DNA from: an uncultured Clostridia bacterium
GTDB lineage: Bacteria; Bacillota; Clostridia; TANB77; CAG-508
Length of the DNA: 64,000 nucleotides
Reading direction: 5' to 3'
Assembly: GCA_934133165.1 (NCBI GenBank)
Contig: CAKPAW010000002.1
Location: forward strand, 4,417-68,416
The notes under the pieces are model-generated. The model saw only the letters and a list, made by a program, of their open reading frames with translations. It searched no databases and was not told the origin of the DNA. The translations under genes were made by a program, and so were the position numbers. Numbering within the stretch: the first letter of the stretch is position 1; each line of letters starts with the position of its first letter. Positions 1,626-56,882 of this stretch are shown piece by piece.

Positions 1626-2648
1626 ATGTTAACCATTGAGAATTTAGAAAAGGATTTAAAAGAAGGAAAACTAAATAGCATTTATCTTTTATATGGGGAA
1701 GAACTATTCCTTTTAGAATCATGCTTAAAAAAAATAAAAAACAATTTTGGTGAAAGAAAAGCAGGAATAAACGAAGTAAAAATAGATGAAACAAATATAA
1801 GCTCAATAATATCAGATATAGAAACACCAGCGTTTGGATATGAAAAAAAATTAATTATTGCAAGAAACACCGGATTATTCAAAAAAGAAGGTAGAAAGAA
1901 AACAGGAATAAACACAGAATTAGTAAATAAAGTTGCTGAATATATAAAAGAAAATATAGAAATAATAAAAGAATCAGTAGTACTTGTTTTTGTGGAAGAA
2001 GAAGCGGAAAAAAATGAACTATATAAAGTAATAGACAATGTAGGAATAGTATGTGAATTTAGCGAATTAAAACCAGTTCAAATTGCTACAAGAATGAAAG
2101 CAATAACAAAAGCATATGGAGTTAGTATAGATGACATTACTATAAAATATTTTATAGAGTGTTGTGGAACCAATATGCAAAGATTAATAAATGAAATAAG
2201 AAAATTAATAGAGTATGCAGGCGCAAATGGAGAAATTACTAAAAAAGATATAGATCTATTATGTATAAAACAATTAGATAGTGTTATATTCGATTTAACA
2301 GATAATTTAGGCAATAAAAAAGTAAGTAAAGCATTAGAAGTATTAAATAATTTAATATATCAAAAAGAGCCCATTCAAAAAATATTAATTACATTATATA
2401 ATCATTTTAAAAAATTATATATTACTAAAATAGCACAAAAAGAAAATAATAATATAGCAGAATGTCTAAATTTAAAACCAAATCAAATGTTTTTAGTAAC
2501 AAAATATAAGACACAGTCAAATTACTTTAGAGAAGAAGAACTAAAAAATATTATAGAAGAATTAATAAATTTAGATTACAACTACAAAATAGGTCAAATA
2601 GATTTAAATGTTGGACTTGAATCTATATTATGCCGTTATTGTTCATAA
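1626..2648 (+). CDS. holA: DNA polymerase III delta subunit
   Basis: 340 aa; N-terminal 'LKEGKLNSIYLLYGEELFLLE' typical of HolA; close-packed after upstream gene. Confidence 0.8.
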   Translation: MLTIENLEKDLKEGKLNSIYLLYGEELFLLESCLKKIKNNFGERKAGINEVKIDETNISSIISDIETPAFGYEKKLIIARNTGLFKKEGRKKTGINTELVNKVAEYIKENIEIIKESVVLVFVEEEAEKNELYKVIDNVGIVCEFSELKPVQIATRMKAITKAYGVSIDDITIKYFIECCGTNMQRLINEIRKLIEYAGANGEITKKDIDLLCIKQLDSVIFDLTDNLGNKKVSKALEVLNNLIYQKEPIQKILITLYNHFKKLYITKIAQKENNNIAECLNLKPNQMFLVTKYKTQSNYFREEELKNIIEELINLDYNYKIGQIDLNVGLESILCRYCS

Positions 2649-2764: not shown

Positions 2765-3700
2765 ATGTACAATTTTAGAACGGATTTAGCAGATGAGAGA
2801 AGAGATTTATATAGAAAAGCTAATAGTATAGAAAATGAAGTTAATGGTGTAGAAACTGAGGTAGAAGATGTAAATGAAAAAATAAAAGTAACAAGAGTAA
2901 AAATTACGAATGAAGAAGGAGAACAAGCAATAGGAAAACCAAAGGGAGATTACATCACTATAGATATAAAGAAAATCAATTTATTAACAGATGAGGAATT
3001 AGAGGAATCTTCAAAAATTTTAGCAGAAGAATTGAAAAAATTAATAGGTGAAAAAATTGAATTTAAAGATGATGTATTAATAGTCGGGTTAGGAAACGAA
3101 GAAGTAACACCAGATGCTTTAGGACCAAATGTGATAAAAAATGTAGAAGTAACAAGGCATATTATAAATTATTTACCACAATATATAGATGAAAATGCGA
3201 GACCTATAAGTGCTATTGCACCAGGAGTTTTAGGAACAACAGGAATAGAAACATTAGAAATAATAAAAGGAGTTGTAGAACATATTAAACCTAAACTTTT
3301 AATAGTAATAGATGCATTAGCATCAAGAAGTATGGAAAGAATAAGTTCTACAATTCAAATATCAAATACAGGAATAGTGCCAGGGGCAGGAGTAGGAAAC
3401 ACTAGAAAAGAAATATCAATAAATACTTTAGGAATTCCTGTAATAGCTATAGGAATTCCAACAGTTGTAGAAACAGCAGTCGTAGTAAATGATGCATTAA
3501 ATATTTTTATAGAAAAATTACAACAAGAAGCAAAATCAAACGACTATTTAAATGAATTAAAAGAAAAAGACAATTATGAGGAGATAAAAGAAGCGTTACT
3601 TCCAAAAGAATTTAATTTTATAGTAACACCAAAGGAAATAGATGAACTTGTATTAAGTATGTCAGAAGTAGTTGCAAAAGGAATAAATATGGCATTATAA
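2765..3700 (+). CDS. gpr: germination (spore) protease GPR
   Basis: 311 aa; 'MYNFRTDLADERRDLY' N-terminus and size match the GPR endopeptidase family; RBS 'aaaaggagtg' upstream. Confidence 0.8.
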   Translation: MYNFRTDLADERRDLYRKANSIENEVNGVETEVEDVNEKIKVTRVKITNEEGEQAIGKPKGDYITIDIKKINLLTDEELEESSKILAEELKKLIGEKIEFKDDVLIVGLGNEEVTPDALGPNVIKNVEVTRHIINYLPQYIDENARPISAIAPGVLGTTGIETLEIIKGVVEHIKPKLLIVIDALASRSMERISSTIQISNTGIVPGAGVGNTRKEISINTLGIPVIAIGIPTVVETAVVVNDALNIFIEKLQQEAKSNDYLNELKEKDNYEEIKEALLPKEFNFIVTPKEIDELVLSMSEVVAKGINMAL

Positions 3701-3737
3701 ACTATATAAAAAATCCAATATAAATTACTATATTGGA

Positions 3738-4421
3738 TTATAATGCAATATGCAAAAAATATAGAATTAGTAGGTGCAAAGGATAGAAAATATAAAAGAA
3801 ATATTTTGCCTTTGGACCTTCTTTTTTATTATAAAATAAAATAAAAATAAGAGATAACGCTGTAAAAATAGCACATTGTATGTAAATATACCATAAAACA
3901 GGAGTAGCAATTATATCAGGCACAAATCTTAAAAAACATAGAACAATGGTAGTAATTGCCATAGGTACTTTTTTATCTTTAAAAAAGTAAAAGCAAAACA
4001 TTAATAAAATACCAAAAGCACCATAATCTACATGTATAAAATAGGCTATAATACTTGTTAAAATAACAAATAAAAATCCTAATGCTTTGTTTTTACATTT
4101 ATCATAAACAAATAAAGCAAGCAAGCCTAAAAATAAAGTAAAAAATATATTAAGAGTAAGTATTTCTTCAGTAAATGTAGATAAAAAAAGCATAAAAGGG
4201 ATTTGAGAAATGCAAGCAAAAATAAATAATTTTAGCATATGCCTTTTAAAATCTTTAGTATAAATATATCCTTGAACAGCTTGAAAAGCAAAAATAGGGA
4301 AGGCAATTCTTCCAATTAAATTACAAAAAGAAAATTTGCCAATAATAGCATCTCCAACATGATCAAATAACATGGTTATAACACCAATAATTTTTAAAAT
4401 AAAACTTGTCATTAAATTCAC
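3738..4421 (-). CDS. TraX-family polytopic membrane protein
   Basis: 227 aa, multiple TM helices; 'ITMLFDHVGDAIIG...IGRIAFPIFAFQAVQG' resembles the TraX family. Confidence 0.45.
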   Translation of the reverse strand: MNLMTSFILKIIGVITMLFDHVGDAIIGKFSFCNLIGRIAFPIFAFQAVQGYIYTKDFKRHMLKLFIFACISQIPFMLFLSTFTEEILTLNIFFTLFLGLLALFVYDKCKNKALGFLFVILTSIIAYFIHVDYGAFGILLMFCFYFFKDKKVPMAITTIVLCFLRFVPDIIATPVLWYIYIQCAIFTALSLIFILFYNKKEGPKAKYFFYIFYPLHLLILYFLHIAL

Positions 4422-4539
4422 CCAAAAACATTATCTAATAAAACAAAATAAAAATCAAGTAAACAAAAAAATATCTTGCATAAAATAATTAATTGATATA
4501 CAATAATTACAGATTTTACAAACGAGGAGGAAGTTTTTT

Positions 4540-11652: not shown

Positions 11653-11681
11653 TTGACAAAAGATAAAAAAGTATGTATAAT
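11653..11681 (+). promoter_or_regulatory. sigma-A type promoter for tRNA-Gly (TTGACA-17-TATAAT)
   Basis: perfect -35 'ttgaca' and -10 'tataat' with 17-bp spacer, ~40 bp upstream of the tRNA. Confidence 0.6.
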
Positions 11682-11720: not shown

Positions 11721-11794
<74 letters not shown>

Positions 11795-12850: not shown

Positions 12851-13202
12851 CCTTTCAATGTGTAATATTATTGGTATACCAATTTGCTTTTGGAATTATA
12901 AATTAAAATAATATATAAATTATAACATGGTTACATAATATTGTCAACTATTATCATTTCTTTAATTTAATTGACTTTTAATTTATTATTTTTTATTGAT
13001 AAAATATAAATCTTATGTTAAAGTATAAACAATAAATCGAGTTATATAAGATAGATTGAAACAAAGTATGCATTTTTTCGCATACCTGTTTCGTAATCGC
13101 TACATAAAAAGCCGAATAGTTCGACTTTTTTATTTATGGAAATCATTGAAAAAACAAAGCAATATTGATATACTATTAACAAATATTTTAAGAGGTGAAA
13201 AC

Positions 13203-17213: not shown

Positions 17214-17276
17214 ACAAAAATTATACTACAATTTCTAAATTATGTCAATATCGAAAAATTGTAGTATAATTTTTGT
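17214..17276. repeat. 21-bp perfect inverted repeat with 21-nt loop (acaaaaattatactacaattt ... aaattgtagtataatttttgt)
   Basis: seen directly; sits between the small Cys-rich gene and the 17509 module. Confidence 0.7.
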
Positions 17277-29214: not shown

Positions 29215-29934
29215 ATGAATAATGATACTACATGTGGGCTGAAAATCAAACAAGTTATAGCAACATTAATAATATTAGTAATGACAGCCACAATAGGACA
29301 AATGTTTATTTTTAAACAAGAAAATTTACAAATAGCAGAAGAAACATTAGAAGTAGAAAATACTATAGAAAAAGCAGAAGTAGAAAATAGTTTCGAAAGA
29401 GAAACAGAAGTAACTTCAAGATCATCAGAAGAAAGAATAGTAGAAGAAATAATTGAAAAACAACCACAATATATTTCAATAGAAGAAATAACAATTTCAA
29501 GAGATATGGATTTAACTGAAAGATGTGGAATATCAAAAGAAGATTTTATAAATTTAGTGGAAAATATGAAAGTTGACTATTCAGGATTTTTTGCACAAAA
29601 TGCAGAAACAATATATGATTTATGTGAAGAATACGAAATAAACGAAATATTCTTCTGTGGATTAATTGCAGCAGAATCAGGATGGAATATATCATCTAAC
29701 CATAAAAATACATGTAACTATATAAGCATGATGTCTGGTGGAAAATTAATTAGATACTCAACACCAGAAGAAGGGTTAGAAGCAGCTGCTAAGTTATTAC
29801 ACAATAGATATTTAACAGAAGGTGGATCTTGTTATTATGGAAAAACTTTATCTGCAGTACAAAGAAGATTCTGTCCAAACTCTTCAACATGGGTAGGTTT
29901 AGTTTATGGATGTATGAAACAAGTTGTAAAATAG
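29215..29934 (+). CDS. membrane-anchored cell-wall hydrolase with glucosaminidase-like domain
   Basis: N-terminal TM; 'GLIAAESGWN' resembles the FlgJ/Glucosaminidase 'ESGWG' motif. Confidence 0.5.
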   Translation: MNNDTTCGLKIKQVIATLIILVMTATIGQMFIFKQENLQIAEETLEVENTIEKAEVENSFERETEVTSRSSEERIVEEIIEKQPQYISIEEITISRDMDLTERCGISKEDFINLVENMKVDYSGFFAQNAETIYDLCEEYEINEIFFCGLIAAESGWNISSNHKNTCNYISMMSGGKLIRYSTPEEGLEAAAKLLHNRYLTEGGSCYYGKTLSAVQRRFCPNSSTWVGLVYGCMKQVVK

Positions 29935-29963: not shown

Positions 29964-29992
29964 TTGACATTGCTAATAAAAGAGTATATAAT
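29964..29992 (+). promoter_or_regulatory. sigma-A type promoter (TTGACA-17-TATAAT) driving the tandem-repeat RNA region
   Basis: perfect hexamers, 17-bp spacer. Confidence 0.55.
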
Positions 29993-30046
29993 GAATATAC
30001 TAATAGAGATAGTAATTTAAACTATCATAGATGTGCTGACATCTTA

Positions 30047-30150
30047 AAAAATCCGAAACACCTGTAAGACGAATGTGCTTACCGTTGGCGGACAACAGAA
30101 AAATCCGAAACACTTGTAAGACGAATGTGCTTACCGTTGACGGACAACAG
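30047..30150 (+). repeat. two tandem 52-nt repeats (aaaaatccgaaacac(c/t)tgtaagacgaatgtgcttaccgttg(g/a)cggacaacag); candidate structured ncRNA or leader
   Basis: 2 mismatches between units; each unit has internal stem 'gtaag...cttac'; followed by a hairpin plus T7 run at ~30164-30207. Confidence 0.7.
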
Positions 30151-30280
30151 AAAAATCAGTAATAAAAATATAGGGCTTATAATTTTTTATAGGCTCTATA
30201 TTTTTTTATTATATTTAAATAAAGAATATAAAAAACAATAGCAATTTATAAAATATATTGCTATAATAAAGGAGGTAAAA

Positions 30281-30598
30281 ATGCAATTAGGTTTATTTCA
30301 AAATATAGTAAATGAAATAAGAAGGATAAATATTAGTGACTTTATAAGTGAAGTCACAGAAAGGCTAGAAAAAATGGAAGAAGAATTAGTAATAGATAGA
30401 TTTGAAGAAAATACTGCAATTTGTGAAGATAGAAAAACAGGCAGAATAATAGAAATTCCAAGAGAAAACATTGAAGAAAATGTAAAAGAGGGAGACGTAA
30501 TAAAAAAAGTAGAAGGAATTTATAAAAAAGATATAGAAAAACAAGAAAAAATAGAAAAAAGAATAGAAGAAAAAATGAATAGAATATGGAAAGATTAA
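30281..30598 (+). CDS. small cytoplasmic protein, DUF3006-like
   Basis: 105 aa, 'LVIDRFEENTAICEDRKTGRIIEIPRENI' resembles DUF3006; this family often precedes ComEC-family MBL genes. Confidence 0.35.
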   Translation: MQLGLFQNIVNEIRRINISDFISEVTERLEKMEEELVIDRFEENTAICEDRKTGRIIEIPRENIEENVKEGDVIKKVEGIYKKDIEKQEKIEKRIEEKMNRIWKD

Positions 30599-56786: not shown

Positions 56787-56882
56787 CACATAATGTAAAA
56801 AACAAAAAAATTTGCTCTAAAAATTGACAAAAAATGATATATCAAATATAATGAAAGTATAAAAATAAAAGGAGGAAAAAAT

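Follow-up and report, generated by a model that had tools for sequence, protein, structure and literature searches.

A pseudoknotted RNA family encoded ahead of predicted PBECR4 nuclease genes, and a candidate orphan RNA antitoxin in an uncultured Clostridia bacterium

What is the role of a small RNA gene that carries a tandem repeat and lies just before a DUF3006 gene in the genome of an uncultured Clostridia bacterium? The window, by which we mean the whole stretch of DNA that was analysed, is 64,000 nucleotides (nt) long (contig CAKPAW010000002.1, positions 4,417-68,416, forward strand), and all coordinates are window-based. Positions 29964-30207 hold an intact-looking gene for a structured small RNA of about 200 nt, with transcription probably starting at about 29999. 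This RNA belongs to an undescribed structured-RNA family that has no match in Rfam. In relatives, the RNA is followed by the gene of a predicted ribonuclease (RNase), PBECR4, which the window has lost. We think it probable that the RNA and PBECR4 form a new type III-like toxin-antitoxin family, with a toxin unrelated to ToxN, CptN and TenpN, and that the window copy is an orphan antitoxin RNA. The fuller proposal is of a widespread type III-like toxin-antitoxin or abortive-infection family, in which a solo BECR RNase is paired with a single-chain RNA of about 150 nt that has pseudo-two-fold symmetry and three pseudoknots. We give this a somewhat better than even chance of being right.

The link to PBECR4 is seen when the window is set beside its relatives. 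There, the terminator of the RNA gene is followed by an open reading frame (ORF) of about 209 amino acids (aa) that is absent from the window. This ORF gives a full-length match to Pfam PF18813 (PBECR4, E = 6.5e-33), the family named 'phage-Barnase-EndoU-ColicinE5/D-RelE like nuclease 4' in Pfam. By tblastn, PBECR4 is found 3' of the RNA in all 10 readable loci of 12, with protein identities of 53-99%; the copy in L007 is frameshifted (L-numbers denote loci with the RNA or PBECR4 from other genomes or contigs). The gene order in L011, which is RNA, PBECR4, DUF3006, MBL-fold protein and Glu racemase, is the window's neighbourhood plus one gene. L002 and L011 carry a 99% identical cassette, and the alignment of both with the window (A1) reveals a clean deletion of about 625 base pairs (bp) in the window, with near-identical flanks on both sides. 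In the window, the terminator is still there with about 14 nt behind it; next come the final 26 nt of PBECR4, and then the DUF3006 gene. No PBECR4 was found in the 64-kb window by tblastn (best E = 0.99). The initial annotation had proposed an attenuator or leader for a DUF3006/ComEC-like operon. This proposal loses its ground, since in relatives the PBECR4 gene separates the RNA from DUF3006, and the two are neighbours in the window only secondarily, as a result of the deletion.

The association holds from both directions. When loci were found through the RNA, 108 among the matches listed had a PBECR4 gene in the same orientation, 46-250 nt downstream. When loci were found through the protein, 15 were collected, consisting of L013-L016 (37-44% identity), L157-L160 (the most distant), four IMG/VR viral loci, the Erysipelothrix phage phi1605, and two more reached from the most divergent member. 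All 15 of these PBECR4 genes, one of which is cut by a contig end, carry the RNA, which ends 55-70 nt before the start codon. Thus, no PBECR4 gene without the RNA was found among these loci, which reach down to about 33% PBECR4 identity. Their contexts are unrelated and include SMC/Tex, RepA_N, RtcB/SpoVA, ferritin/integrase, UPF0182 and a prophage end beside a recombinase.

The RNA itself is conserved well beyond the window. Its 24-nt unit core recurs, identical, in 12 other species-level genomes from uncultured gut Clostridia, Clostridiaceae and Lachnospiraceae, where the unit is present in 1, 2 or 3 copies at a 52-nt period. Conservation in relatives extends to the promoter, both leader hairpins, the units and the terminator. 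The repeat is therefore not a chance local duplication, the outcome that the initial annotation had tied to a repeat absent or unconserved in relatives. In total, the family is found in at least about 150 loci from gut Clostridia, Erysipelotrichia and phages. DNA-pattern scans located the RNA in 8 viral contigs and more than 100 metagenome contigs; 8 of the 16 viral matches in these scans and a few metagenome matches had no covariance-model match and were discarded as chance. PBECR4 had no match in the plasmid collection.

The signals that flank the RNA are part of this conservation. A near-consensus promoter lies about 29 nt 5' of the modelled domain. Of 82 distinct upstream regions, 36 score 12/12 and 64 score 10/12 or better, the latter compared with 9 after shuffling. 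The terminator is at the same place in relatives and shows compensatory changes in its stem. A stable hairpin with a T-run was detected between RNA and toxin in 38 of 54 distinct intact loci by a crude scan, in which a miss does not equal absence. The family's terminator hairpins have a median stability of -19.6 kcal/mol. Between the T-run and the start codon of the toxin gene, the median spacing is 26 nt, which would leave little room for a separate toxin promoter.

In the window, the initial reading of a discrete non-coding RNA gene, driven by its own promoter, ended by a terminator and built from structured repeated units, is borne out. Tandem Repeats Finder reports a repeat at 30047-30157 with a period of 52 nt, 2.1 copies, 96% matches and no indels, and the units differ at two positions, with C at 30062 against T at 30114 and G at 30088 against A at 30140. 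Two matches to a 47-nt unit pattern are present in the window, where 0.00 were expected (100 shuffles). The perfect promoter, the internal stem of each unit and the terminator hairpin with its T7 run, all described earlier, were recovered at the same positions (Table 1). The window contains five perfect TTGACA-N17-TATAAT sites against 0.05 expected. The terminator is a long stem with A/U flanks around GGGCUUAUAA-UUUU-UUAUAGGCUC, and the terminator scan gave 3 sites over 2 kb, where 0.4 were expected. Compared with shuffles, the fold of the 218-nt transcript has a z-score of -5.0, and there is no ORF of any weight across the RNA region. A search with covariance model R1 (cmsearch) yielded no second match, so the RNA is single-copy in the window. 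Rfam 15 at gathering thresholds gave no match in the window. A permissive Rfam scan of the region returned as its best match Aar, on the opposite strand, with 20.5 bits against a gathering score of 60 (E = 0.85), and nine canonical loci of the family showed no relevant Rfam family at permissive thresholds.

The fold of the RNA can be described from the comparison of family members. Each unit consists of a 4-nt strand (YCNG), joining bases of the GAAAY type, a variable hairpin (H_A or H_B), an invariant stem (S1) and an A-rich linker. S1 is a 4-bp stem, GUYG/CRAC, with a 5-nt loop of G plus 4 nt, and the linker AGAAAAA is almost invariant across the family. Leader hairpin 2 repeats this design with an S1-like stem that is followed by an A-rich linker. 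Three helices are formed by the loops. Helix b-b' joins the S1 loop of unit 1 to the opening strand of unit 2, which makes a classical local H-type pseudoknot. Helix a-a' joins, over a long range, the S1 loop of unit 2 to the opening strand of unit 1. In c'-c, also long-range, the 4 nt after the last linker have the loop of leader hairpin 2 as their partner. Together, these helices are predicted to close the RNA into a single compact fold. The initial annotation had seen a duplicated aptamer-like unit; a picture of two independent units gives way here to units that interlock into one fold through three pseudoknot helices, long-range pairings among them.

Covariation supports this model. In a MAFFT alignment of 30 diverse sequences (A3), 98.9% of the cells are paired, compared with 27-53% when the partners are slid, and 12 of the 24 pairs are compensatory, a number reached by 0 of 500 shuffles. 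A covariance model was then built with the three local stems only and with no pseudoknot information. It gave 146 matches across loci, none of them in loci judged to be chance pattern matches. In the resulting alignment of 75 distinct sequences (A4), paired positions make up 99.1% of 1,684 cells, a share that drops to 23-55% once the partners are shifted by 1-3 columns. Here, 14 of the 24 pairs are compensatory over 150 cells, and again 0 of 500 shuffles reach this. The pseudoknot helices are individually supported in A4, with c'-c 98.9% paired (4/4 pairs compensatory), b-b' 97.9% paired (4/4) and a-a' 98.5% paired (2/4). The S1_0 stem also covaries, its closing pair being GC, AU, CG or UA, and further pair types appear in every helix among the most distant members. 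All members form H_A and H_B, with differing stems. Leader hairpin 1 is variable in sequence, and relatives keep a hairpin there with other stems (GAUGGG/CCCAUC and GAUAGA/UCUAUC, by eye). The G that comes before the S1 loop 4-mer is conserved at 143 of 146 sites.

The tandem-repeat appearance of the window copy is a special case within the family. In the family at large, the median identity between the two units is 76% and their pairing codes usually differ, with a equal to b' in only 9 of 66 sequences. The window's clade, by contrast, has UCCG/CGGA as the code of both units, which share 94-100% identity. Gain or loss of a unit in this clade therefore leaves the fold closed, which explains both the tandem-repeat look and the 1-3 copies. 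Family-wide, the loop 4-mers vary (CGGA, CAGG, GGAG, CGGG, CUGG, CAAG, UGGG, AGAG and others) and covary with the partner strand. Our first idea, a UCCG-CGGA helix closing each unit, fits only the window's clade and one change in L004, and it is contradicted by loci in which unit 1 ends in CAAG or CAGG and unit 2 starts with CUUG or CCUG. Because the loop motifs are not conserved and covary with partner strands, readings as an ANTAR dual-hairpin or a mini-ykkC-like RNA were rejected, as was a CsrA sponge of the CsrB/RsmZ type, whose loop GGA behaves in the same way.

Table 1. Parts of the RNA gene and its 3' surroundings in the window
Feature	Coordinates	Strand	Details
Sigma-70 promoter of the RNA gene	29964-29992	+	12/12 consensus match; TTGACA 29964-29969, 17-nt spacer, TATAAT 29987-29992
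Leader hairpin 1	30008-30026	+	GAUAGU-AAUUUAA-ACUAUC; minimum-free-energy fold prediction
Covariance-model match	30025-30168	+	cmsearch model R1; 129.7 bits, E = 7.8e-23
Leader hairpin 2 (S1_0)	30030-30043	+	Stem GAUG/CAUC; loop carries c' = CUGA 30036-30039
Unit 1	30044-30103	+	Tandem Repeats Finder; pair counts on alignments A3 and A4
Unit 1, A-rich linker 0	30044-30051		
Unit 1, strand a	30052-30055		UCCG
Unit 1, hairpin H_A	30064-30082		Internal stem GUAAG/CUUAC
Unit 1, pseudoknot stem S1_1	30084-30087 with 30093-30096		GUUG/CAAC; loop G + b = CGGA 30089-30092
Unit 1, A-rich linker 1	30097-30103		AGAAAAA
Unit 2	30104-30159	+	
Unit 2, strand b'	30104-30107		UCCG; opens unit 2, pairs with b
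Unit 2, hairpin H_B	30116-30134		Internal stem GUAAG/CUUAC
Unit 2, stem S1_2	30136-30139 with 30145-30148		GUUG/CAAC; loop A30140 + a' = CGGA 30141-30144; a' pairs with a
Unit 2, linker 2	30149-30155		AGAAAAA
Unit 2, strand c	30156-30159		UCAG; pairs with c'
Intrinsic terminator	30164-30207	+	19-pair stem 30164-30205; T7 run 30201-30207
Deletion scar / PBECR4 remnant	30221-30251	+	Junction about 30221-30225; last 26 nt of the ORF with stop (ATATAAAAAACAATAGCAATTTATAA) 30226-30251
DUF3006 gene	30281-30598	+	Pfam PF11213; first gene of the DUF3006/MBL-fold/racemase cluster; not part of the module

The protein encoded after the RNA in relatives has about 210 aa and is predicted to be a BECR-fold RNase. 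Searches based on hidden Markov models (HMMs) gave 75 standalone homologues of about 200 aa, and a profile search clustered at 50% identity gave 2,180 clusters at E ≤ 1e-3, 1,259 at E ≤ 1e-10 and 580 at E ≤ 1e-30, so that the family has at least 580 such clusters in gut Bacillota and their phages. In an alignment of 51 sequences, H50, T52, G53, K94, K151 and Y177 are invariant, and E40, T123, T148, D153 and R155 are nearly so. PBECR domains have been described as predicted metal-independent endoribonucleases with a His in a helix and a Thr or Ser (Iyer et al. 2017, PMC5512222). The conserved residues of PBECR4 fit this description and, judged by them, it has the look of an enzyme. Confidence in its AlphaFold2 model is high (pLDDT 88.6, pTM 0.85). 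Foldseek of this model against the PDB gave nothing better than E = 0.11, and neither phmmer nor a profile search against all PDB sequences gave a match at E ≤ 10. In Pfam, PF18813 is the sole family with E ≤ 1, with no Abi_2 match, and PADLOC, PHROGs and NCBIfam returned nothing useful for PBECR4. In BFVD, two unnamed phage proteins share its fold (TM-score 0.69). The solo PBECR4 proteins are likewise unnamed in public sources.

The window is one of many loci in which the RNA outlasts its neighbour. Among the matches listed, 111 distinct RNA loci have enough downstream sequence. Of these, 62 have an intact PBECR4, 29 a frameshifted or truncated one and 20 none. The window RNA is thus one of many orphans. 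Loss of a toxin with retention of its RNA is the asymmetric decay that would be expected of toxin-antitoxin loci, by analogy with such systems. At position 30140, the window has A, where 73 of 74 family members have G, and it is the sole exception at this position of unit 2. The A could mark early decay after the loss of the toxin, an anecdotal sign only, as the orphans are not more degraded as a group.

Taken together, these observations lead us to suggest the following mechanism. The ancestral module comprises a strong constitutive promoter, the RNA, an intrinsic terminator, about 26 nt that include a ribosome-binding site, and the PBECR4 ORF. From this order, it would follow that the RNA is made in excess and that the nuclease is made only by read-through of the terminator. 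PBECR4 would be toxic, and the RNA, which may be processed, would bind the RNase directly and neutralise it, as in a type III-like toxin-antitoxin or abortive-infection system. When the supply of RNA is lost, through shut-off of transcription by a phage or loss of the element, the toxin would be freed, and a role in phage defence may lie here. The deletion of about 625 bp took the toxin gene, and the window RNA would thus be an orphan antitoxin, which may be vestigial or may be kept as protection against incoming PBECR4 modules. Among the options that the initial annotation offered, the protein-binding decoy RNA comes closest to this proposal of an RNA that acts as antitoxin to an RNase.

Several points weigh against a toxin-antitoxin module. 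PBECR4 matches no PADLOC defence model. The non-identical units in one closed fold, which most of the family has, differ from the canonical arrays of identical repeats that are cut into monomers, and the invariant A-rich linkers could be purely structural, through A-minor contacts, instead of being cleavage sites. The crude scan detected the terminator in only 38 of the 54 intact loci. In addition, the RNA is not more degraded beside broken or absent toxins, as counted by broken pairs and deviations at conserved positions (Fisher p = 0.56-0.83), in a test that is biased since the loci were found through conserved RNA motifs. Equal preservation would also fit a function that is independent of the adjacent toxin.

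These points have to be weighed together with other explanations of the locus. One is that the RNA is a cis-regulatory leader, a riboswitch or a protein- or RNA-sensing attenuator of read-through into PBECR4, and not an inhibitor of the protein. The RNA is always 5' of the ORF on the same strand with only the terminator between them, its compact conserved pseudoknotted fold with invariant unpaired positions is aptamer-like, and the RCd22 RNA of C. difficile also lowers abiF expression transcriptionally. However, the terminator, which starts 4-10 nt after strand c, is a separate and very stable hairpin whose sequence is not conserved, and no conserved alternative pairing is seen by eye. As there is no Rfam match either, the tandem riboswitch of the initial annotation finds no support. 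Moreover, RNA, promoter and terminator persist unchanged in 49 of 111 loci that have no functional gene to regulate, and the near-consensus promoter suggests an abundant RNA that is itself the product. We therefore regard a leader as unlikely. That the RNA is a partner of PBECR4 of a non-inhibitory kind, such as a cofactor, scaffold, specificity determinant or dedicated substrate, seems to us quite unlikely. The co-occurrence in 15 of 15 loci shows coupling and not its sign, the variable H_A and H_B could carry specificity, and PBECR domains have been suggested to target specific RNAs (PMC5512222). But the placement of the terminator points to a large excess of RNA, which is the logic of antitoxin to toxin, and the protein is often lost while the RNA is kept, never the reverse, which fits an antidote and not a cofactor. 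H_A and H_B also act as structural stems, with covarying pairs and similar loop lengths.

The RNA might instead be an independent trans-acting small RNA, either a base-pairing regulator or a sponge for another protein, with PBECR4 merely adjacent. We hold this to be very unlikely. Orphans are indeed as well conserved as toxin-adjacent RNAs, and the window copy retains a perfect promoter and terminator. Yet RNA and PBECR4 travel as a pair through unrelated contexts, prophages and phage contigs, even at protein identities as low as about 33%, only a single copy is present in the window, and a CsrA-type sponge is excluded by the unconserved loop GGA. A chance or non-functional repeat has practically no probability left, since it is ruled out by the 24-nt core in 12 species, the roughly 150 covariance-model matches and the strong covariation; only the near-identity of the window's two units speaks for it. 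An RNA antitoxin for PBECR4 is the reading that we prefer.

Other observations concern individual loci and the surroundings of the module. In the isolate phage phi1605 (L161, MF172979.1), the RNA, promoter and terminator are unannotated at 2280-2555 of the locus, and the PBECR4 ORF starts near 84721 of MF172979.1. The annotated start of its 'hypothetical protein' (locus 2555) is probably too far downstream, and an ATG at about 2487, after GAGAGG, gives an N-terminus that matches the family. The phi1605 module is near the prophage end, between genes for a type III restriction res subunit and a site-specific recombinase. In L015, and in this one locus only, a gene for RtcB RNA ligase (3294-4502, minus strand) directly follows PBECR4 in convergent orientation. 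This ligase repairs RNA ends with a 2',3'-cyclic phosphate, the kind made by metal-independent RNases. L104 carries a second, shorter copy of the RNA (2122-2230, minus strand, 60.6 bits) about 390 nt 5' of its main copy at 1591-1732. Ten contigs (L033, L040, L067, L086, L090, L103, L125, L129, L132 and L138) share the same truncated PBECR4 and an identical RNA, and represent one lineage. Their PBECR4 spans only HMM positions 2-105 and is either a pseudogene that has become fixed in a common gut species or a variant that is shorter but functional. In L072 and L135, only a short PBECR4-like N-terminus (MAKYNKKTALKVIRV...) is found about 206 nt after the RNA, and it is followed by a 393-aa ORF that opens with an HNH-like motif and may be an insertion that disrupted the toxin gene. 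Three phage-like contigs (L019, L035 and L069) have an orphan RNA that lacks both PBECR4 and an obvious terminator of the usual type; an ORF of 494-514 aa of unknown function lies about 160-175 nt further on.

In the window, the upstream ORF (29215-29934, plus strand) had been called a glucosaminidase. Its Pfam match of 20.9 bits (E = 5.9e-4) is below the cut-off of 30.2, so this name is not sustained, and a match to mTERF is equally weak. The upstream neighbour of the module differs among close relatives, being an ABC-2-type permease in L011 and the window's ORF in L002. The other four perfect promoters are located at 11653-11681, 12919-12947 (minus strand), 17220-17248 (minus strand) and 56824-56852, the first of them just 5' of a tRNA (11721-11791). 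Two mechanical ORFs of 37 and 38 aa, at 30000-30113 (minus strand) and 30125-30241 (plus strand), overlap the RNA and the terminator and are very likely spurious.

If the proposal is correct, a BECR-fold RNase with an RNA partner would add a structurally unrelated class of toxin to the type III systems, and the solo PBECR4 proteins would be assigned a role and an immunity factor. The orphan RNAs, which are common, may then act as immunity against incoming modules. The compact RNA, with its three pseudoknots, reciprocal swapped loop-strand helices and invariant A-rich linkers, is a good target for structural work. The module is common in human and animal gut bacteria and their phages, and the isolate prophage phi1605 carries all of it, which makes the hypothesis directly testable. 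In addition, the RNA gene is invisible to current annotation pipelines, and it marks PBECR4 cassettes and their scars.

How does the module compare with known systems? Type III systems comprise toxIN, cptIN and tenpIN, which are defined by toxin homology, plus AvcID and AbiF (PMC12283969). The operational description of Blower et al. 2012, as quoted in PMC12283969, includes a toxin gene directly preceded by a Rho-independent terminator, which is found in the relatives, and tandem direct repeats between promoter and terminator, which are found both in the window (2.1 copies) and in relatives (1-3). By mechanism, a type III system further has an RNA that directly binds and neutralises a protein toxic on its own, and a toxin that, as an endoribonuclease, processes the repeat precursor. 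For the former, the co-occurrence in 15 of 15 loci and the asymmetric decay are indirect evidence; for the latter, PBECR4 is a predicted RNase. A complete toxin-antitoxin locus is not present in the window, where the toxin gene is gone. As PBECR4 lacks the required toxin homology, the module does not belong to toxIN, cptIN or tenpIN. The partner of the RNA is a solo member of PF18813, and so is related to the PBECR domains in polyvalent proteins of phages and conjugative elements; solo versions have been noted in phages (PMC5512222). That study, by contrast, described PBECR domains as offensive effectors that are injected, and it reported neither an immunity factor nor a partner RNA for them. 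In the searchable literature, no work connects PBECR or BECR proteins with RNA antitoxins, and solo PBECR4 proteins come up there in a single, unrelated paper.

In organisation, the module resembles CptIN of Eubacterium rectale and Coprococcus, which also has a promoter, about two tandem repeats of 40-50 nt, a Rho-independent terminator and an endoribonuclease toxin (PMC12283969; PMC4627078), and which also occurs in gut Firmicutes. CptI RNA likewise has an H-type pseudoknot with an A-stretch that contacts the adjacent stem (PMC12283969). By this analogy, a two-unit RNA might suggest a 2:2 complex. The two systems differ in that searches of PBECR4 by Pfam, PDB sequence and Foldseek gave no match to CptN, ToxN or AbiQ, and in that the units of its RNA are usually non-identical and are locked to each other, to the leader hairpin and to the 3' strand by three covarying helices. 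ToxIN and TenpIN share with the module the genetic architecture, the expected terminator-based excess of antitoxin, a pseudoknotted repeat RNA, and a distribution over phages, prophages and chromosomes. TenpI, too, can have non-identical repeats and a conserved A-stretch (PMC12283969). ToxI, in contrast, consists of 5.5 repeats of 36 nt that are cleaved by ToxN, and the PBECR4 RNA has no Rfam match, ToxI-like or other. The AbiF/RCd22 system of Clostridioides difficile differs in its toxin, which is a HEPN-like Abi_2 protein and not a BECR-fold protein. The module does not belong to it, as there is no Abi_2 match in Pfam and no match to the abiF motif of Rfam in the window or in the nine canonical loci. 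Even so, it is alike in being found in a prophage in Clostridia and in placing a structured RNA with two motifs 5' of the toxin gene. RCd22 neutralises the AbiF toxin in cis and in trans by direct binding (bioRxiv 10.1101/2025.04.15.648962). Thus, toxins other than ToxN can have type III-like RNA antitoxins.

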